Shown here: positions 5,594 to 15,728 of the stretch, in pieces | Numbering within the stretch: position 1 is the stretch's first letter | How the letters are laid out: each line of letters begins with the position of its first letter | NCBI GenBank assembly: GCA_964545075.1 | Contig: CAZJFS010000006.1 | Span: forward strand, 1-63,180 | Length of the DNA stretch: 63,180 nucleotides | Origin: an uncultured bacterium | GTDB lineage: Bacteria; Muiribacteriota; UBA9980 | Reading direction: 5' to 3' | Program-made: the position numbers and the translations under genes | Notes under the pieces: model-generated | Databases searched by the model: none | What the model saw: the letters and a program-made list of their open reading frames with translations, nothing else | What the model was told of the DNA's origin: nothing

Positions 5594-6361
5594 CTATTCA
5601 TCAACATCTTTCATATATTTCATTGGATCTACCGATTCGGGCTCGCCCTTGTCCTGATTGAGGCTTCTTATTTCAAAATAAACCCGGGACGATGCTTTTT
5701 CACCGGAAACAGCCAGTTTCTGGCCGTTTTTAATATTATCGCCCTTCTTGACGAGATTTTTTTTGTTGTTTCCATATATCGAGAACATTCCGTCGAGATG
5801 GTCCACTATTATAAGGTTCCCATAACCCTTCATCTGGCCCGCGAATACTACCTCGCCGGCGCTTATCGATTTCACGGAGCTGTTCGGAGCGGTCTTTATG
5901 AATATGCCTTTCGATTCCGGCGAAAATTTAGAGACTACTTTTCCTTTTACCGGCCAATCGAATTTCTGGGATTTAGACCTGGCTGCCCCGTCCTTGGATT
6001 TAACGGCCTTCATATAATTTTCGCGGCGCGCGTTCAAGACGGTGGGCGAACCCGGAATAAATATGCTGGCGCCCTTTTTAAGGGAATGGTTCTCTGAAAT
6101 ATTGTTGTATTTTTTCAAAGCGGCGATAGATATTCCGTATATGTCCTTGAGCTTCGAAAGCGATTCGTCAGGCGCCACTATATGAGTTATGCCGTCAACT
6201 CCAGGATTTCCGACGATCCGTTCCTCCGTCCGCACCGGCTCCTTCAATACGGCGCGTGAATCGTCACCGCCGTTTCTCTTGCACCCGGAACCGGCCGTAA
6301 GCATGAGCGAGCATATCAAAATTAAAATTATCTTATTCATTACGTTGTGTTTCATCGTCAC
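5594..6361 (-). CDS. LysM + M23 peptidase lipoprotein (NlpD-like)
   Basis: Lipobox-like TAGSGC; LysM (HIVAPDESLSKL..YGISIAALKKYNNI); M23-type FDWPVKGKVV, GYGNLIIVDH, SIYGNN (zinc ligands look degenerate, as in NlpD/EnvC activators). Confidence 0.8.
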   Translation of the reverse strand: MTMKHNVMNKIILILICSLMLTAGSGCKRNGGDDSRAVLKEPVRTEERIVGNPGVDGITHIVAPDESLSKLKDIYGISIAALKKYNNISENHSLKKGASIFIPGSPTVLNARRENYMKAVKSKDGAARSKSQKFDWPVKGKVVSKFSPESKGIFIKTAPNSSVKSISAGEVVFAGQMKGYGNLIIVDHLDGMFSIYGNNKKNLVKKGDNIKNGQKLAVSGEKASSRVYFEIRSLNQDKGEPESVDPMKYMKDVDE

Positions 6362-8448
6362 AACCTCCTCTTAATCTGTTCGATAGAATCTTCCGCGGAA
6401 TTTCTTATTATTACGTTACCGTCGCTTAAAAGTTCCGTCAAAAGCGGTATTGTCGAATCGTTTCCTATTTTTCCAAGAAGCTTCGCCGCGGCCACTTTAA
6501 CTATCCACAGGTCGTCGTTCAGCGCGCGCGTAAGCGGCAACAAGAATCTTTGGTCCACCGCGTCTATAAGAGCTTTATAAACAACGTCTATAAGTTTCGA
6601 ATCGTTCTGCTGTTTTAAAAATTTAAGTATCGGATCAAGTATCTCGGGCGTGCCGATTTTTCCGAGAGCTACGACCGAATCTTCGCGGACGCGATCCGAA
6701 GGATCCTCCAGAAGCGGTATTATAACCGGGATCACATCCTGGGCCTGAGTTTTTCCGAGCCCTTTCACGGCATTGCCGCGGACGCAGTCCTCGCTATCCT
6801 GTAACGCCTGAGTAAGGCTTTTAACGACCTGTATAGACCCTATTTCGCCTAACGCGAAAGCGGCGGAGGCCCTTTGCCATTTATCTTTTTCCTTTAAGAG
6901 CATTCCTTCCAGGGCGCTTATCATTCTTATGCCGCCGAATTTCCAGAGCGTTTTCGCGGCGTTGGCCTTAACGCGGTTATTGGAGTCGTTTTGAAATATA
7001 GGGTATATAAGATCTACTATTTCTTCTCCGCCCAGCGCCTCGAGAGTTTCAATAGCGTTCGCCCTGACGCGGGCGTCAGAATCCTTAAGGGCCGCTTCGG
7101 CGGTCTTGATATATTTTTTATCCTTCGTCTTTCCGAGTATTTCTATTATCGTCGCCCTTACCTTGTTGGACTGGTCGGTCTTATAACATTCGACGATCGG
7201 ATCGATACAGCGCAGATCGTTCAGCTGACCCGCAACCTTGATCGCGCAAACCCTGATATCTTCGTTCGAATGCCTGAAATGGGAGATCACGAGATCCATA
7301 AGTTCTTTCGCCTCGAGCGCGCCGACGGCTATCAGCGCTTCGTTAATGACCTTTTCGTGGGAACTCGTCAGCGACGATTTAAGGAAGGCGTGTATTTCAT
7401 TATCAAAAAATTTCGTTTTTCCTAGTGTTTTGCAGAGGAACACTTTTATATTGTCGTCTTCGGTCTGAAAATATTTTTTAAGGCTTGCCACATCCGAGGA
7501 AGAAACGAGCTTTTCGAGAGAGCTCATGGCGGCGTTCCTTATTTTTTCGGAAGTGGTCCTGAGGGCGTTTATCAACGACGCCGTGACCTTCGGCTCGGGG
7601 AACGACGAGAGGCATTCTATAGCCTTCGCCCTTATGTCCTCGTCGTCTATTTTAATGACCTGAATGATCGCGCCTAGCGCGCGCTTGTCGCCGATCTTCT
7701 GGAGCGAGTCGAGGCAGTTTATTTTTACCTGTTTGTCTTCGTTTTTTAAAAGAGTGTATATGAGCGGTTCGACGGTCTGCACGAGACCGAGGGCCCCGAA
7801 TATCTGTATGACATTGTTCTGCTTGGGAACGTCTTCCGTTTTCACGAGAATATAGTTGAGCCTCTTTAAAAGCAGCTGCCCCTCGAGACGCCAGAGTATG
7901 TTAGCGGCGGATATCCTCACCTTGTCGTCAGGACTGAAAAGCAGCGGATATAGCATGCTGGATGTTCTCTGATCGCCCTTGTCGGCGATGTATTTGAGAG
8001 CGAGCATCTGAACGTGCGGGCTCGGGTATTGAATGCAGCTGGGGACTATCTGAAAAACGTCATCAAAAGTTCCGAATTCGGTTATTAATATGAAGACGGC
8101 CGATTTCACCTGTTCATCGTCTTCGACCTGAAAAAGCTGAACGAGCGTTCCAACGCACTTGGTATCTCCGATCCTTCTGAGAGCTTTAATAATCTCGATC
8201 TTGACTTTCGTGTCCGATTCGAACATCGTCGCAAGAAGAAATTTAGTAGCCTTTCCATTGGCAAGAGTACCTAATGCATGGACTATATCGAGGCGCAGGT
8301 TAAGATCAGGAAGCAGATCGACGAGAGCGTCGACCGCCTGTTCCGAACCGCTCTGGCCTAAAAGCCTTATAGCTTCTCTTCTTTCGTTAAGAGAAGTGTT
8401 CTGGTTCTTGACCTTTTCAATGACTTTTTCGATATTTATAAATGACAA
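6358..8448 (-). CDS. HEAT/PBS-lyase repeat protein
   Basis: Many repeats of type LxDxDxRVRANAIExL and VRxxAAxALGxIG across the whole length. Confidence 0.9.
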   Translation of the reverse strand: MSFINIEKVIEKVKNQNTSLNERREAIRLLGQSGSEQAVDALVDLLPDLNLRLDIVHALGTLANGKATKFLLATMFESDTKVKIEIIKALRRIGDTKCVGTLVQLFQVEDDEQVKSAVFILITEFGTFDDVFQIVPSCIQYPSPHVQMLALKYIADKGDQRTSSMLYPLLFSPDDKVRISAANILWRLEGQLLLKRLNYILVKTEDVPKQNNVIQIFGALGLVQTVEPLIYTLLKNEDKQVKINCLDSLQKIGDKRALGAIIQVIKIDDEDIRAKAIECLSSFPEPKVTASLINALRTTSEKIRNAAMSSLEKLVSSSDVASLKKYFQTEDDNIKVFLCKTLGKTKFFDNEIHAFLKSSLTSSHEKVINEALIAVGALEAKELMDLVISHFRHSNEDIRVCAIKVAGQLNDLRCIDPIVECYKTDQSNKVRATIIEILGKTKDKKYIKTAEAALKDSDARVRANAIETLEALGGEEIVDLIYPIFQNDSNNRVKANAAKTLWKFGGIRMISALEGMLLKEKDKWQRASAAFALGEIGSIQVVKSLTQALQDSEDCVRGNAVKGLGKTQAQDVIPVIIPLLEDPSDRVREDSVVALGKIGTPEILDPILKFLKQQNDSKLIDVVYKALIDAVDQRFLLPLTRALNDDLWIVKVAAAKLLGKIGNDSTIPLLTELLSDGNVIIRNSAEDSIEQIKRRL

Positions 8449-8503: not shown

Positions 8504-9709
8504 TCAGCGAAGTATCTTTTCCGTAAGATCGGCGCCGGATATTTTCGAAATATATTCTTCCGAAAGGCCGAGCATTCTTCCGCAGGTTTTAGCTATGCAT
8601 GAAAAGCCTTCGACGGTATGAAGGTCGAGTCCGCGTTTCACGCAATTTCCGTATATTAAAAGAGGAACGTATTCACGAGTATGATCGGTCGTTTTGGTGA
8701 AAGTAGGATCGCATCCGTGATCGGCGGTTATCATTAAAACATCGTTATCGTTCATTCTTTTCATTATTTCAGGCAGCTGCGAGTCGAATTCCATAAGGGA
8801 TTTCGCATAACCTTCCACGTCGCGCCTATGCCCGAAAACCATATCAAAATCGACAAGATTAGTGAATATAAGACCGGTGTTGAAGCGGTCCATATAATCG
8901 AGGGTCTTTTTGACGCCGTCGGCGTTTGAAGACGTTGTTATATAATCGCTGAGGCCGCGGCAGGCGAATATATCGTATATTTTACCCACTCCTGCGGTCC
9001 TTATGCCCGATTCTTTAAGATAGTCGAGAAGATTGGCGGGCGGCTCGAGTGAAAAATCATGGCGGTGCGAGGTCCGCTTGTATTCGCCGGGCTTGCCTAT
9101 GAAGGGCCTTGCGATAACGCGGCCTACAGCATGTTTCCCTCTTAATATGCTTCTGGCCATTTTGCAGTATTCGTATAACGTTTCAAGCGGAACCGTCTCT
9201 TCATGCGCGGCTATCTGAAATACCGAATCGGCCGAAGTATAAACTATCAAGGCGCCGGTTTTCTGATGTTCTTCGCCAAGATCTTTTATTATTTCAGTAC
9301 CGGAAGCGGCATAATTACCAAGAGTTTTTCTGCCCGTAAGTTTTTCGAATTCATCCAGCACTTCAGGAGGAAAACCTTTCGGATAAGTTGGAAATTCCTG
9401 CTCAAGCTTCACGCCCATCATTTCCCAATGTCCCGTCGTCGTATCTTTTCCCGGAGACAATTCCTTTAATTTCGCGTAGGTGCCAATGGGATTGGAGCAT
9501 TTTGAAACGCTGGTCACGGTATCGATGTTTGATATGCCAAGTGAAATCAGATTGGGAATCTTAAATTCTTTAGAAGCTTTTCCTATGTTTGAAAACGTGT
9601 TTGATCCGACATCGCCGTATTTATCGGCGTCAGGCATTTCACCTATCCCTACGGAATCTAAAACTATGAGTATTACCCTGGAGATCGAATCATTTGTCTG
9701 AGTAGTCAT
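8504..9709 (-). CDS. deoB: Phosphopentomutase
   Basis: LIVLDSVGIG, GKDTTTGHWE, TSADSVFQIAAHE, NLVDFD..GHRRD, TADHGCDP, DHTRE. Confidence 0.97.
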   Translation of the reverse strand: MTTQTNDSISRVILIVLDSVGIGEMPDADKYGDVGSNTFSNIGKASKEFKIPNLISLGISNIDTVTSVSKCSNPIGTYAKLKELSPGKDTTTGHWEMMGVKLEQEFPTYPKGFPPEVLDEFEKLTGRKTLGNYAASGTEIIKDLGEEHQKTGALIVYTSADSVFQIAAHEETVPLETLYEYCKMARSILRGKHAVGRVIARPFIGKPGEYKRTSHRHDFSLEPPANLLDYLKESGIRTAGVGKIYDIFACRGLSDYITTSSNADGVKKTLDYMDRFNTGLIFTNLVDFDMVFGHRRDVEGYAKSLMEFDSQLPEIMKRMNDNDVLMITADHGCDPTFTKTTDHTREYVPLLIYGNCVKRGLDLHTVEGFSCIAKTCGRMLGLSEEYISKISGADLTEKILR

Positions 9710-9766: not shown

Positions 9767-12076
9767 TTACCACGCTTCAAATATTTTTTCAACGGCTTCG
9801 TCGTTTACCGAAAAAACGCCATGAGTTTTTTCATTTACGTCATTGTAAAAGAAAGCCGGAAGTTTCGTTCTTATATTTTCGCGACCGGAAGCATTATTGA
9901 AGGAATTTTCTTCTTTTATAAGTTTTTTCGCGATTCTGGCCGCTTCCTGAAAGGTTAGTTTTATATTATACCTTAAAGCGATTATTTTTACAAGAGAATT
10001 CCACAACTCTTGATTTTCGATAAGCGGGTATATTAAATTCGGACATAAACCAAGAGTATCCATAACATGAAAAGCCAGCTGCATATTGCGGGAAAATTCA
10101 ACCTGGCCTTCAGGATAGCTGGCGGTAACGGAAACGCCCGCATTTGAAATATTCGCGGCAGCGATATATCCCCAGGCTTTTTCTTCTGTTCCAATGGGAG
10201 ATGTGATATAAGAAACGCCAAGGCCCATTACGGCGCGCGGATCATAAGGCGGCATGGCCTCTCCCGATACGCTCACGGCGCAGCCGTCGCCTACGGATAT
10301 AGCCGCGGCATATGCGCCCTTTAATATTATCCTGCCAAGAACGGTCTGTTTGTCGATCTCTGACAGGCATGCGACCGCTATTTCGGCCGGCGAGCCTTTT
10401 TGCGTACCGGACCTGATAACTTCACATATTGCCAGAGCGATTTCGCTGAAATCAAGGCCTTTTTCCCTGCAATATCTGAGAATCCTGGCGATAACGTCGA
10501 AATTAAATATTTCGGACATAGTTCCAAGCTGCGCGATATGTTCATATTCGATATATGGCGTTTTGACGTTTTTATCATCGATAAAAATATTTTTGCATTT
10601 TACGAGGCATCCATCTATGCATGAAACGCCGCATGTTCCCTTTCGCTTTAGAATAATTTCACCAAGCGCCTGATGCGAAAGTTTGGCGATATCAGCGGAT
10701 TCGAATTTTTCATAACGGGCTATGGGCAGGGCGCCGCATTCATACAGCGGCATAACGAAGGACGCGGTGCCATACGGCGATATCATTTCCGATATGGTTC
10801 GATTTTTCAGCACGGCTTCGTTGAACTCGGAAACGAGTTTTTCATATTCGGATCTTTTTTCAATTGGAATTTCGGCAGGCATGGCGCATTCGCCGGCATC
10901 AAATACCATGGCGATAACCCCGAGGGCGCCCATTAAAAGACCGGGCCCATATTGTATGTCGGGATTTCCGGACGCGTCCGTCGCCGATATGGTAGCCGTG
11001 GCCGCTCCTTTTTGAGCCATCGGACCCGATACGATAAACGAGCAGCCGGCGCCGTGGACGCGCCTGAGCCTTTCCGTTATTTCATAATTATTAAGTCCGG
11101 CGAGGTTTTCGCCCGAAAGAAATTCAACCGAATTTTTCGAAAATTTCAAAACGTAATAATATCCCTGAGCGTCACCTTCGATTATTATTGAACGCATTCC
11201 CAGGGCCGCCATGGAAGACGCCGCGCCGGCCGGCCTCGTCATTATCTTTATTCCGTTCGTTCCGGGGCTTTTAGAACCTATCGCCAGCGAAGCGGAAGAG
11301 GTTATGCCGCTCCCCGCGAGCGCTCCGGGCGCCATAACTATCTTGTTAACTTTAACGGCGGGACTTTTCGGATCGATCTCCGAGCATATTATAGCCGAAC
11401 AGAGTGAACGGCCGAAAAGCGACGCCTTCTCCCTTTCGTCTAACTTATTGACGACGGACGCGATATTTTCAAATTTAACGGACCGTTCGAGGGTGTTTAC
11501 CCTTATGATTTTCTGATCGAATTCGCCGGCGAATGAAAACACGGACCCAGGAGTCGCAACGGAATTAAGAGTTAATATCCTGAAAGGGACGTTTTTCTGG
11601 CGAAAAAAAACCGAAATAAGATCTTTTTCGGCGGACGAAAGAACGGGCTCGTTAACGAGGAACCTCACTTGAAGGTTTTTAAAGCGCCTGGCCTGTTCAA
11701 GTATCGCCGAAGCCTCGGCCTCGACGATTTTCATATCTCCGGCGCGCACCGCTGAAACATTAGGCGAAATTTCAACTATATGCGCGCCGGCCCGGACCAT
11801 GGCATCCAGCAAAAGGCATTTTTCGGACGAGTGCGAGAGCCCCAACGGAAAATCTATCATGGTGGCGATCTTCGTCCTGGAATTTTTAAGTTTTTCGGCG
11901 GCCTGGCGTACCATGAACGGAGGAACGAGCACTTCTATGTAGTTATAGGCCAGCGCGCCTTCAATCACGTTCAGGACGGTCTCACGAGCTCCACCCGCCA
12001 TATCGATAAACGACCCGGAACATTTATAAAATTCTTTTTTTGAGATATTCATTATGCTATCACTTATAAACATCAC
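9767..12076 (-). CDS. Fusion: degenerate DeoC-like domain + aldehyde:ferredoxin oxidoreductase (AOR)-family domains
   Basis: aa ~15-175 align by eye to DeoC (IATMIDFPLG..AGAHIVEISPNVSAVRAGD); the rest has AOR features (KIIRVN, APGALAG, GSKSP, CxxxCxxxC, EYE, YDPRA, DTLGLC). Confidence 0.8.
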   Translation of the reverse strand: MMFISDSIMNISKKEFYKCSGSFIDMAGGARETVLNVIEGALAYNYIEVLVPPFMVRQAAEKLKNSRTKIATMIDFPLGLSHSSEKCLLLDAMVRAGAHIVEISPNVSAVRAGDMKIVEAEASAILEQARRFKNLQVRFLVNEPVLSSAEKDLISVFFRQKNVPFRILTLNSVATPGSVFSFAGEFDQKIIRVNTLERSVKFENIASVVNKLDEREKASLFGRSLCSAIICSEIDPKSPAVKVNKIVMAPGALAGSGITSSASLAIGSKSPGTNGIKIMTRPAGAASSMAALGMRSIIIEGDAQGYYYVLKFSKNSVEFLSGENLAGLNNYEITERLRRVHGAGCSFIVSGPMAQKGAATATISATDASGNPDIQYGPGLLMGALGVIAMVFDAGECAMPAEIPIEKRSEYEKLVSEFNEAVLKNRTISEMISPYGTASFVMPLYECGALPIARYEKFESADIAKLSHQALGEIILKRKGTCGVSCIDGCLVKCKNIFIDDKNVKTPYIEYEHIAQLGTMSEIFNFDVIARILRYCREKGLDFSEIALAICEVIRSGTQKGSPAEIAVACLSEIDKQTVLGRIILKGAYAAAISVGDGCAVSVSGEAMPPYDPRAVMGLGVSYITSPIGTEEKAWGYIAAANISNAGVSVTASYPEGQVEFSRNMQLAFHVMDTLGLCPNLIYPLIENQELWNSLVKIIALRYNIKLTFQEAARIAKKLIKEENSFNNASGRENIRTKLPAFFYNDVNEKTHGVFSVNDEAVEKIFEAW

Positions 12077-12109
12077 GCAAGGGGCATTTAAATTGCCCCT
12101 TGCTTTTTT
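12077..12109. terminator. GC-rich hairpin (10-bp stem) with T-run on the + strand, between the DeoC and AOR-fusion genes
   Basis: GCAAGGGGCA-tttaaat-TGCCCCTTGC-TTTTTT. Confidence 0.6.
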
Positions 12110-12151: not shown

Positions 12152-13594
12152 TTAGTAGCCTTTTTTAGCGGACGCGACTCCCGAGACTATTGAAACGGAA
12201 GCGGAAGCGCCTATTCTTGTGGCGCCAGCGGCGATCATCGTTTTCGCTGTCTCAAGATCACGCACGCCGCCCGACGCCTTAACGCCCATGTCGGGACCGA
12301 CGGTCTTTCTCATCATGGCAATGTCGGCCGCCGTAGCGCCGCCCCCGGAAAATCCGGTGGACGTCTTTACGAAGTGAGCGCCGGCGCTCTTCGAAAGCCT
12401 GCAGGCGGTGACTTTTTCTTCATCGGTAAGAAGGCTTGTCTCAAGAATGACTTTAACGGTGTGGCCGCCGGCCGCGCGTACGACATCTCTGATATCGTCC
12501 TCTACCCGCTTCAAGTTTCCTGATTTAAGAGCGCCTATATTTATGACCATGTCTATTTCATCGGCGCCGTCAGCTATCGCCTGAACCGTTTCACAGGCTT
12601 TGGCGCTCGAGGAAGTGGCCCCGAGAGGAAAACCTACGACCGTACAGACCATTACGCCGGCATTTCTGAGACGATCCTTACAAAATTTAACCCAGCCGGG
12701 GTTTACGCAAACGGAAGCGAATTTGAATTTTCCGGCTTCTTCGCACAGCTTTTCAAATTCGGTCTGTTTAGCGTCCGGCTTTAATAGAGTGTGATCTATC
12801 ATTGAAGCCAGAGCCGAATCAAAAGCGCCCGGAACCGAACCTATACCGGGTGTAGCCGATATTCTCGCCGCTCCGGCGTTCTTAATGTTATTCACGGCGG
12901 ACTCACGTTTTACGAAACATTGGCCGCACTGCGAGCAATTCGATCCATCGCAGTTCGAAGCCGCGGGCACGTTTGAACAAGATCTTTCACATGCCGTTTC
13001 AAGGCCTCTGCAAATCCCGGACATCGGAACTACGGTTACGCCCATTTCGGTTAACTTCGCTATTTTCTGATTTATCTCGCGCATGATGGCCGGATTCGCG
13101 TTTCCAAGCTGGCTCAAAAGCGGCTCGGATGAAACTATTAAAGTTTTTTTATTGATCACGTGCCAGATAAGATAGTTACATACCATCGAATCGGTGTTCA
13201 AGCCTGAAATATGGGTCAGGGCCGAAAGCGAAAGAAAAGGAACTATCACGCTCTGGTACTTTTGCAGGAACAATGTCCTTTCCGCATAGCTGAATGAAGT
13301 ATAAATTTCACCGGCTTTTAAGCGAGAGCGAAGTTCAGCGACGTCAAAGACGGACTTAGCTCCGTCAGAGAGAAGTATGTCATATTTGAGCCCGCCGGCG
13401 CGTTCGATCTCACGATAGAAATCTTCCCGCATATTGGGAACGCCCGTAAAGACGATAAGGACTTTTCCGGATGACGCGGCTTCGGTTGAAGGCTTATAGG
13501 ACTGCGCCGTGGAACCGGAAACGTTACCCGTGGAAGTTTTAATCGTGCTCAAAACCTCGCGGGTGATCATATCGATCAAATTTTTATTATCCAT
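12152..13594 (-). CDS. deoC: BMC-associated deoxyribose-phosphate aldolase with N-terminal encapsulation peptide, flavoprotein-like domain and Cys-rich linker
   Basis: C-terminal DeoC intact ([54 protein letters not shown]); N-terminus [18 protein letters not shown] is an amphipathic EP-type helix. Confidence 0.9.
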
Positions 13595-13682: not shown

Positions 13683-14036
13683 TTACAGCGTGGAAGCGGT
13701 GGGGAGTATCCTTTCTACGTCTTCGTGCGGAGAAGGAATCACATGAACGCTTATGAGCTTTCCGACTTTTGAAGCCGCCTGAGCGCCAGCGTCAGTAGCC
13801 GCTTTTACAGCGCCTACGTCGCCTCTTACCATGCAGGTAACATAGCCTGCGCCGATCTGTTTCCATCCGATAAGTTCCACGTTAGCGGCTTTGACCATTG
13901 CGTCTCCAGCCTCTATCATAGGGATCAATCCGTAGGTTTCGATCATTCCGAGCGCTTTTTTCACATTAATCATCCTTTCGTTATTTTCGATTATTATTTT
14001 TTCATTTATCGTTTTTTCTTGCTTACTCTTGGACAT
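13683..14036 (-). CDS. BMC hexameric shell protein (BMC-H, EutM/PduA-like)
   Basis: [42 protein letters not shown]. Start may be downstream (GTG before KKALG, with AGGA RBS). Confidence 0.95.
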
Positions 14037-14082: not shown

Positions 14083-14370
14083 TTACTTTGCCTCCACCCA
14101 TCCGTCCAGATCGACCGTATCGACGACGCCGACTATAACTAGATTGACCGGCATCTTATTTCTTTTCAAGACTATTTTCGCCGAACCGCCTTCTTTAAGT
14201 ATGAGCACCAGATCGCCTTCACCGGCGTCCACCGAATCAACGGCCACAAGGGGTTTTCCAACAGGATTTCCCGAAATGTCGGTCTGCTTGACAAGCATCA
14301 GTTTGAAGCCTTCAAGCGTTTTATTCTTTATGGTGGAAACTACGTTCCCTATGACCTTTCCAAGTATCAT
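14083..14370 (-). CDS. BMC pentameric vertex protein (BMC-P, EutN/CcmL)
   Basis: MILGKVIGNVVSTIK..LEGFKLMLV..VAVDSVDAGEGDLVL..IVGVVD. Confidence 0.95.
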   Translation of the reverse strand: MILGKVIGNVVSTIKNKTLEGFKLMLVKQTDISGNPVGKPLVAVDSVDAGEGDLVLILKEGGSAKIVLKRNKMPVNLVIVGVVDTVDLDGWVEAK

Positions 14371-14380
14371 TACGATGCCC

Positions 14381-14668
14381 CTACGTTATTTTCAGCAGAT
14401 TCAATCCTGATTTTATTTCATCGATTATTCCGATTATACCCATGTCCGTCGGCGTATTCGGTTCACTGAACGCGTTCGTGGCTTCACGGCTTTCGATGAT
14501 CAATACGACTTCGCCGTTTCCGGCGCCGACGGTATCGACGGCCACGAAAGGCGGCCCTATCGCCGTAAGTTCCTCATTTATAGGCTCAACGAAAAGCATT
14601 TTGCTTCCCTTAAGCGTCTCCCATTTACAGGTCGAAACGAGGCTCCCGCATACGCGTCCAAGTATCAT
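14381..14668 (-). CDS. BMC pentameric vertex protein (BMC-P, EutN/CcmL)
   Basis: MILGRVCGSLVSTCK..VAVDTVGAGNGEVVL..PTDMGIIGIID. Confidence 0.95.
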   Translation of the reverse strand: MILGRVCGSLVSTCKWETLKGSKMLFVEPINEELTAIGPPFVAVDTVGAGNGEVVLIIESREATNAFSEPNTPTDMGIIGIIDEIKSGLNLLKIT

Positions 14669-15354
14669 TCGAAGCGCACCGTTATCCCCTTAGCCCGCGC
14701 CGCGTCCTTCGCGAGGTCAGTAACTATAGTGCCTTTAGCGATAATAAGTTCCGTCCCGCCCTGGCATTTTTTGACGTATTCCTCGGAGATCAATACGGGA
14801 TGAGATACGCTTGCGACCGGGTTCGATGCGTTTCCGCCGTAACCTATGGCCGCGAGAACTCTTGTTATTATCGTTTTTACAAGACCTTCGTCCAGCGATC
14901 CGCCTGATACGGATGCGAACGGAGCGTAGTTTAATATTTTATCGACCCTTTTCGAATGGCGTCCGCCTTCGAATTTAGCTTCGATAAAAGTATCCACGAG
15001 CTTTTTAGCAAGGCCCGTGCCTACGACCATCGATCCCATGCACATAACGTTGGCGCCGTTGTGCTCGCGGGCATTGCGCGTAACGTAAAGTTCATTGCAT
15101 ACCGCGGCGAGAACGCCGGGAACGCGGTTTGCGCACATGGATGATCCGATACCGGCGCCGTCAATCATGATCCCGACCGCCCTGGGGTCGGCCGAAACGT
15201 ATTCAGCCACCTTGAAGGCAAAATCGGGATAATCGCAGGCGTCCTTCGATTTCGTTCCAACGTCGATCACGTTATGGTTCAAGCTTTTCAGGTAATCGAC
15301 AATGACGCATTTAAGATCATAGCCGCCATGATCGGCTCCTATGACTATGTCCAT
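14665..15354 (-). CDS. rpiB: RpiB/LacAB-family sugar-phosphate isomerase with encapsulation peptide and extra C-terminal domain
   Basis: IGADHGG, DYPD, AREHNGANV, FEGGRHSKRV; then LDEGLVKTIITRVLAAI (EP-like) and a ~45-aa tail. Confidence 0.9.
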   Translation of the reverse strand: MDIVIGADHGGYDLKCVIVDYLKSLNHNVIDVGTKSKDACDYPDFAFKVAEYVSADPRAVGIMIDGAGIGSSMCANRVPGVLAAVCNELYVTRNAREHNGANVMCMGSMVVGTGLAKKLVDTFIEAKFEGGRHSKRVDKILNYAPFASVSGGSLDEGLVKTIITRVLAAIGYGGNASNPVASVSHPVLISEEYVKKCQGGTELIIAKGTIVTDLAKDAARAKGITVRFE

Positions 15355-15379: not shown

Positions 15380-15664
15380 TTATTTTTCATCAAACTGAGG
15401 AATGAGCTTTTCGGTTTCTGCGTGCGGACGAGGGATTACGTGAACGCTCAAAAGTTCCCCGACCCTCTGCGCAGCCTGAGCGCCAGCGTCAGTAGCCGCT
15501 TTTACAGCGCCTACATCGCCTCTTACCATAGCCGTTACAAGGCCGGCGCCTATCTGTACCTGCCCGACGAGAGTTACGTTAGCGGCCTTTACCATAGCAT
15601 CAGCGGCTTCTATCGAACCGATGAGGCCTTTTGTCTCTACCATACCTAATGCTTCTTTAATCAT
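15380..15664 (-). CDS. BMC hexameric shell protein (BMC-H, EutM/PduA-like)
   Basis: [46 protein letters not shown]. Confidence 0.97.
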
Positions 15665-15699: not shown

Positions 15700-15728
15700 A
15701 TTATATTATTAATTTCACAAAATGTCAA
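15700..15728 (-). promoter_or_regulatory. Consensus sigma70 promoter of the BMC operon
   Basis: Minus strand TTGACA-17 nt-TATAAT, ~35 nt upstream of the first BMC-H start. Confidence 0.85.

Follow-up and report, generated by a model that had tools for sequence, protein, structure and literature searches.

What becomes of a tungsten enzyme when the residues that hold its cofactor have been replaced? The question is raised by a gene of an uncultured bacterium of the Muiribacteriota (UBA9980; assembly GCA_964545075.1), located in positions 1 to 63,180 of contig CAZJFS010000006.1, the 63,180-nucleotide stretch that we call the window. On its minus strand a single open reading frame (ORF) at 9767-12076 encodes a 769-residue fusion of a truncated deoxyribose-phosphate aldolase (DERA) to a protein resembling aldehyde:ferredoxin oxidoreductase (AOR), with a GTG start. 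All residue positions below are those of this product. Its database copy (P0002) has 768 residues and starts at an ATG one codon downstream, and the alignments of homologues begin at Met9. A preliminary description of the span 9767-11550, which is the AOR part of the ORF, held that the domain keeps its Fe-S ligands and has lost several tungstopterin and catalytic motifs; it read the protein as a double pseudoenzyme acting as electron carrier or scaffold, or as an enzyme with an altered cofactor. The comparisons below bear out the loss of motifs and the pseudoenzyme, and leave the altered cofactor as the weaker reading. On balance, we lean towards the view that the fusion is a conserved, pterin-less accessory or scaffold protein of a nucleoside-sugar bacterial microcompartment (BMC) of the SPU (sugar-phosphate utilisation) type and a phosphopentomutase (DeoB) module.

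Cofactor residues of the AOR body

The AOR part matches Pfam AFOR_N (PF02730) at residues 189-393 with 85 bits (window 10898-11512; domain 1, with degenerate pterin-phosphate loops) and AFOR_C (PF01314) at residues 414-749 with 124 bits (9830-10837; domains 2 and 3, as also seen in the structure model). Both scores are far above the curated cut-offs, and a chance match is thereby excluded. A model of the AOR part alone, predicted from a 92-sequence alignment (pLDDT 93.7, pTM 0.94), gives a TM score of 0.88 against each of full-length 9G7J, 1AOR and 9MQX, with all three domains complete; in this model, the AOR fold is intact. The full-length AlphaFold model, made from a 6-sequence alignment, has a pLDDT of 40, and only the partial barrel of its N-terminal domain is usable. 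The fusion shares the three-domain fold with the AORs of Pyrococcus (PfAOR, 1AOR) and Clostridium autoethanogenum (9G7J) at 19-20% identity and differs from them at both ends. Its N-terminus aligns to strand 1 of DERA, giving it an extra DERA-like domain, and its C-terminus aligns to the RGW region of AOR and stops at the Trp of that motif.

Motif strings were placed by HMMER alignment to 9G7J, 8C0Z, 1B25, 1AOR and 83 close relatives, and PfAOR numbering was carried over through the genome's own canonical AOR (L001, 615 residues), which aligns end to end with 1AOR. Every string quoted in the preliminary description is present and lies exactly opposite the motif named for it. Four cysteines, C486, C490, C494 and C678, are invariant in six of six family members and probably carry a [4Fe-4S] cluster; a set of four cluster cysteines is shared with 1AOR and 9G7J. 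The first three form CIDGCLVKC (residues 486-494, window 10595-10621), a family-invariant Cx3Cx3C where the solved enzymes have Cx2Cx3C; the parent clade described below has the same spacing, which is therefore inherited and not novel. The fourth closes DTLGLC (673-678, 10043-10060), the second DxxGL(C/D) motif. Cys481, the residue that HMMER sets against PfAOR Cys288, varies within the fused family. Also kept in all six members, and shared with 1AOR and 9G7J, are the equivalents of T243 (T437), E311-Y312-E313 (E510-Y511-E512; the EYE at 10541-10549, a second EYE at residues 410-412 being an irrelevant copy), D343 (D542), Y427-D428-P-R430 (Y611 to R614, in the invariant YDPRA of residues 611-615, 10232-10246) and D489 to C494 (D673 to C678). 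Thus the second-shell catalytic residues T437, E512 and Y611, corresponding to T243, E313 and Y427, are invariant in the family.

The anchors of the pterin, its phosphates and Mg fare differently. In the fused family R76 is Ser or Ile, and N93-S-G-G is [TS]-R-P-[ACS], seen here as IMTRPAG (278-284, 11225-11245) opposite ESNxGG. GPAGE reads [GS]PMA[QAV]. R182 and the R186 of RGG are gone, an invariant Q375 standing at the start of RGG in QYGPGLLMGAL (375-385, 10922-10954), which lies opposite AGRGGxGAVMGSK. K196 is Leu, Phe or Met, and N260 is Arg or Phe. In the first DxxGLD motif, REKGLD (537-542, 10451-10468), position 338, a mixture of Asp and Asn in the parent clade, has become an invariant Arg537; D343 is retained and T344 is Phe. 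The second-shell H448 is replaced by Glu632 within an invariant E631-E632-K633, part of GTEEK (629-633, 10178-10192), which stands with a one-residue insertion opposite the parent clade's GADH. K450, like R76, N93-x-G-G, R182, R186-G-G, K196, D338 and H448 a feature of 1AOR and 9G7J that the fusion does without, is not conserved. Only D343 and D489 to C494 are left of the anchor set. The replaced positions (R76, N93-x-G95-G96, GPAGE, R182, R186-G187, K196, N260, T344 and D447-H448) are 85-100% kept in 83 parent-clade sequences and are also kept in the genome's canonical AOR and the solved AORs. According to two reviews, the cofactor ligands and T243, E313, Y427 and H448 differ little from one AOR family member to another (PMC12096430, PMC13328260). 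Most likely, to judge from these replacements, the AOR body no longer holds a tungsten or molybdenum (W/Mo) bis-pterin.

What the fusion departed from could be seen by widening the search. A word-indexed homologue search yielded only seven fused relatives, one of them identical to the window protein, two sharing 81-83% identity with it and four sharing 46-49%; the wider family came to light only through a profile search run exhaustively. Queried with the AOR part, that search returned 1548 proteins, headed by stand-alone AORs of ~570 residues at 160-312 bits. This clade (P0009-P0139) lacks the N-terminal domain and keeps all the cofactor anchors: R76, N93-x-G-G, R182, R186-G-G, K196, D/N338 and H448. 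Its consensus reads ESNxGG, AGRGGxGAVMGSK and GADH, so the motifs that the preliminary description took as usual for AORs do match, in the narrower sense of being those of the ~570-residue parent clade.

We then asked how these columns behave within the fused family. There are 91 parent-conserved columns, defined as at least 85% conserved in the 83 parent-clade sequences, and the fused family retains 39 of them. Within the AOR part, invariance across the family holds for 92% of the 39 retained columns and for only 24% of the 49 that changed, compared with 36% for the AOR part as a whole; the changed columns, being less invariant than background, indicate relaxed constraint and argue against a re-fixed alternative cofactor site. 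That changed positions evolve at or above the background rate of the family likewise supports the pseudoenzyme. Twelve changed positions have been re-fixed: F221, P282, M353, A354, K495, M520, F543, E606, E631, E632, N680 and N704. The protein as a whole is under strong constraint, with 212 invariant AOR-part columns across members that are 46-49% identical. Nei-Gojobori dN/dS, which the preliminary description had proposed as a means of telling purifying selection from decay, is 0.10 overall between the window and L017 (0.08 for the DERA-like domain, 0.14 for AOR_N, 0.10 for AOR_C) and 0.13 overall between L012 and L015. Values of ~0.1 mean strong purifying selection on a protein that is needed, and not decay.

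Two observations on related AORs may be added. In four parent-clade proteins (P0056, P0069, P0098 and P0111) the stand-alone AOR is fused C-terminally to an iron-containing alcohol dehydrogenase (Fe-ADH), which suggests a one-polypeptide module interconverting acid, aldehyde and alcohol. The genome's third AOR-family gene (L003:844-2589, on contig C38 of G000; 581 residues) is also unusual, having D-H-E for E-Y-E and no D489 equivalent, with R182, R186, K196 and H448 kept.

The DERA-like domain and the fused clade

The N-terminal domain (residues 20-185, 11522-12019, from profile and alignment) comprises strands 1-6 only of the DERA barrel. Its DeoC match is weak: residues 27-153 score 51 bits against TIGR00126, for which the cut-off is 117.3 (NCBIfam; found also by PDB sequence search), and the match spans just profile positions 17-133 of 211. 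Aligned with the neighbouring true DERA and its orthologues, the domain is ~19% identical over strands 1-6 and then ends, so that the (beta/alpha)8 barrel of DERA (TIGR00126/PF01791) is incomplete. In the window's family Leu or Ile stands in place of the Schiff-base Lys of FVKTSTGF (here FRILTLNS, 11561-11584), the Lys of VKVILE is Arg, and neither the VKASGG strand nor the last strand is present. Fused representatives outside the window's family terminate before the Schiff-base Lys strand, and the second Lys, that of VKASGG, is lost by truncation in all 11 fused representatives. Read from these residues, the DERA-like domain is unable to form a Schiff base. With strands 7 and 8 and the Schiff-base Lys gone from one half and the pterin phosphate and Mg anchors from the other, the comparative evidence upholds the proposal of a double pseudoenzyme. 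When the truncated domain was modelled in complex with the real DERA domain, the score was 0.00 with controls not run, a result that is uninformative either way.

Beyond the window's family there are five further fused representatives, P0043, P0102, P0104, P0117 and P0133, of 696-734 residues and with the same truncated DERA. All 11 N-fused representatives make one clade inside the ~570-residue clade (FastTree SH 96, IQ-TREE SH-aLRT 99). The tree has long branches and should be read with that caution; architecture and gene context agree with the clade. The simplest account of these alignments would be that the fusion arose once within the ~570-residue stand-alone AORs, which the phylogeny makes its ancestors. 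The five other representatives keep RGG...K and are variable at E311, E313 and H448, and in P0104, P0117 and P0133 the cluster cysteines are gone, C494 included. Redox chemistry or catalysis therefore cannot be the clade-wide function, and the loss of Fe-S cysteines in these sister lineages favours a structural role as the common one.

The contexts of these relatives are instructive. P0104 sits after RpiB, BMC-P, BMC-P, BMC-H and DeoC. P0043 and P0117 are located away from shell genes, and downstream of them there are still DeoB, a HEAT-repeat protein and an M23 peptidase; the genome of P0043 has a complete SPU locus elsewhere. One relative has PduL, aldehyde dehydrogenase (AldDH), a third BMC-P, a PduS-like protein and BMC-T together in a single SPU locus, and its fusion is elsewhere, beside DeoB. 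In a survey of 87 genomes of the phylum, 78 had BMC shell genes and 11, all from three families, had the fusion, which makes the fusion an add-on rather than a core part. It is shell-adjacent by coordinates in nine of the 11 genomes and non-adjacent in one, these being kin and not independent; in G085 it is on the same contig as shell genes, ~1.6 kb distant. A distant orthologue beside shell genes (G008:C34:34309-36459, 25% identity) has one in-frame TAA, which could stem from faulty sequencing, recent pseudogenisation or recoding. The source names of some cluster members are Candidatus Wallbacteria. In the literature that we found, including papers on the microcompartments of Wallbacteria or Riflebacteria, the fusion is undescribed.

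Microcompartment operon and satellite loci

The fusion is the seventh gene of a minus-strand operon whose order is identical in all close homologues: BMC-H (15380-15664), RpiB (14665-15354), BMC-P (14381-14668), BMC-P (14083-14370), BMC-H (13683-14036), a true DERA (12152-13594), the fusion and DeoB (8504-9709). The shell genes and RpiB were assigned by profile match, DERA by TIGR00126 (280 bits, residues 262-470 of the protein) and DeoB by NF003766 (527 bits). DeoB follows the fusion in every recovered context that reaches past its 3' end. A perfect sigma-70 consensus by pattern match (TTGACA-17-TATAAT, 12/12, 15700-15728, minus strand) precedes the first shell gene by 36 bp and is likely to be the operon promoter. 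The locus joins shell genes of the BMC-H and BMC-P kinds to DeoC (pfam01791) and RpiB (pfam02502), the combination that defines the SPU type in Sutter et al. 2021 (PMC8217296). That catalogue lists an orthologous genome, ADurb.Bin243, as 'SPUx (sat) (omitted)', and its text and supplements mention no AOR-family member or AFOR domain (PMC8217296).

Two of the enzymes carry extensions. The true DERA has 260 additional N-terminal residues consisting of an invariant encapsulation-peptide-like helix, a Rossmann-like module of ~150 residues without a Pfam match, and a Cys-rich segment with seven invariant cysteines, including Cx4-5Cx2Cx2C, which could bind an Fe-S cluster. All three elements are conserved in four orthologues. 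RpiB has an 85-residue C-terminal extension (residues 145-229) with an amphipathic helix, and the tail gives a weak match to TIGR02536, an ethanolamine-utilisation family (E 7e-4); the extension is likely to be a packaging or interaction module. Inspection by eye found no encapsulation-peptide-like helix at either end of the fusion.

A hairpin with a 10-bp GC-rich stem (GCAAGGGGC-N7-GCCCCTTGC, window 12077-12103) takes up the space from the DERA stop to the fusion start. On the coding (minus) strand it is followed by no T-run and abuts the GTG/ATG, and a clear Shine-Dalgarno sequence is absent. It may tune the ratio of DERA to fusion or stabilise the mRNA. Downstream of the fusion and DeoB are a HEAT-repeat protein of ~700 residues (6358-8448) and a LysM-M23 peptidase (5594-6361), a block that recurs (L012, L015, L018 and L020) in the examined contexts reaching that far, shell-less ones included.

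The acylating AldDH and PduL core of such organelles is outside the window and present in the genome. At the start of contig C88 (2-1374) is the N-terminus of an AldDH with an encapsulation-peptide-like helix, adjoining BMC-P and PduL, and the rest of the peptide-tagged AldDH ends contig C124 (12313-13404). From this split gene, we infer that the two contig ends join. On C105 (L010:1183-3093), a PduS-like flavo-Fe-S protein is beside a tandem-domain BMC-T. With AldDH and PduL at a satellite locus, the fusion is not required as an acetaldehyde sink. The genome thus resembles the catalogued SPU loci (PMC8217296) in its shell genes, DeoC, RpiB, AldDH, PduL and BMC-P triplet, and differs in that a main locus is accompanied by two satellites and that the AOR-like fusion and DeoB are appended.

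Some ideas could be set aside along the way. That the AOR replaces a missing AldDH, or that this is a minimal BMC without a core, is ruled out by the PduL, AldDH, third BMC-P, PduS-like protein and BMC-T of the satellite loci. A 543-residue AldDH on C13 was rejected as the BMC enzyme: no BMC genes adjoin it, and its sequence, judged by eye, resembles the P5C (pyrroline-5-carboxylate) dehydrogenase type. That the genome cannot make pterin is ruled out by MoaC, MoeA and three other AORs.

Role of the fusion

The scaffold account that we favour starts from one fusion of a ~570-residue stand-alone AOR to a truncated DERA, after which catalysis would have been lost. The protein would have evolved fast and remained useful while shedding cofactor contacts, different lineages losing different ones, and in the window's family it is the pterin anchors that are lost and the Fe-S cysteines that are retained. 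The DERA-like domain would contact the real, encapsulation-peptide-bearing DERA or other cargo as an enzyme-mimic adapter or scaffold; the AOR body would give bulk or oligomerisation; and the Fe-S cluster would serve the structure or, in a small way, relay electrons. An adapter or scaffold role of this kind appears the most likely one, the adapter part being what we infer. There are precedents. The CcmM protein of carboxysomes is an enzyme-mimic scaffold with RbcS-like and gamma-carbonic-anhydrase-like domains, and NuoG/Nqo3 of complex I has a molybdopterin-enzyme fold without the cofactor and with its Fe-S kept. The fusion may embody the same idea, an enzyme-derived domain kept in non-catalytic form for assembly or Fe-S carriage; there is no sequence relationship to either, and the likeness is by analogy only.

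Several observations weigh against the scaffold account. The metal- or pterin-facing residues T437, E510-Y511-E512, Y611-D612-R614, D542, D673 and C678 are strictly kept, for which a pure scaffold has no obvious explanation. New invariant charged residues stand at old cofactor positions (R281-P282, R537, E631-E632-K633, K493 and K495) and could re-create phosphate contacts. With MoaC, MoeA and three other AORs in the genome, the pterin cofactor would be available. Finally, the list of presumed pterin-contacting residues is drawn partly from conservation and from what is known of 1AOR, rather than from a residue-level superposition. Some of these points suit a working W/Mo aldehyde oxidoreductase with a cofactor site remodelled by new Arg and Lys, which would oxidise DERA-derived acetaldehyde or glyceraldehyde-3-phosphate beside the aldolase and pass the electrons on via Fe-S. 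The equivalents of T243, E311, Y312, E313, Y427, D343, D489 and C494 and the cluster cysteines are all invariant, R281, R537 and K633 are new and invariant at former cofactor positions, and the genome makes the cofactor. The Cys-rich module of DERA and the PduS-like protein with BMC-T make an electron path conceivable, and the AOR::Fe-ADH fusions of the parent clade point to aldehyde chemistry in the ancestry. We nevertheless consider such an enzyme quite improbable, in that more than ten near-invariant cofactor-anchoring positions have been lost together, most changed positions are variable within the family, His448 has become Glu, sister fused lineages lack the cluster cysteines and E311/E313, and a canonical AldDH and PduL are in the genome.

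Alternatively, the former pocket may have been re-used without pterin, by way of the kept Glu-Tyr-Glu and Tyr-Asp-Pro-Arg and the new Arg281, Arg537 and Glu-Glu-Lys, to bind a phosphosugar or nucleotide and thereby act on DeoB and DERA as their sensor or regulator, or to carry out a new non-redox reaction. Such re-use would account for the 12 changed positions fixed to new residues across members 46-49% identical, for the 92% invariance of the pocket-facing kept residues, and for the adjacency of DeoB in every context reaching past the fusion. The fixed residues are not common to the other fused subclades, however, so the function would be family-specific; no ligand was suggested by any search; and the DERA-like domain is without the phosphate-binding strands of real DERA. 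We regard re-use as unlikely. A decaying pseudogene, or an artefact of assembly or annotation, would fit the many lost motifs and the in-frame TAA of G008, but is hardly credible when the frame is open in all 11 genomes but that one, dN/dS is ~0.1 in every domain, and the 212 invariant columns are accompanied by conserved synteny.

The scaffold account has a bolder form, which we put forward as tentative and rather doubtful as it stands. The fusion would be the first case within the tungsten AOR family in which loss of the pterin is shown, and it would survive as an organiser, with a dead DERA docking on the real one and an Fe-S AOR body nucleating or wiring the cargo of a nucleoside-sugar BMC, as a heterotrophic counterpart of CcmM.

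In public records these genes are named 'Deoxyribose-phosphate aldolase 1' or 'AOR C-terminal domain-containing protein'. The findings caution against annotating them as aldehyde:ferredoxin oxidoreductase or DERA, and against treating them as a sink for acetaldehyde when metabolism is reconstructed. For the SPU-type organelles of a candidate phylum, they point to an accessory component that had gone unrecognised. Reviews describe the cofactor contacts of AOR/WOR enzymes as nearly invariant; a conserved lineage that sheds them, with sisters that shed the Fe-S cluster as well, would be a natural series leading from a pterin enzyme to a structural protein.

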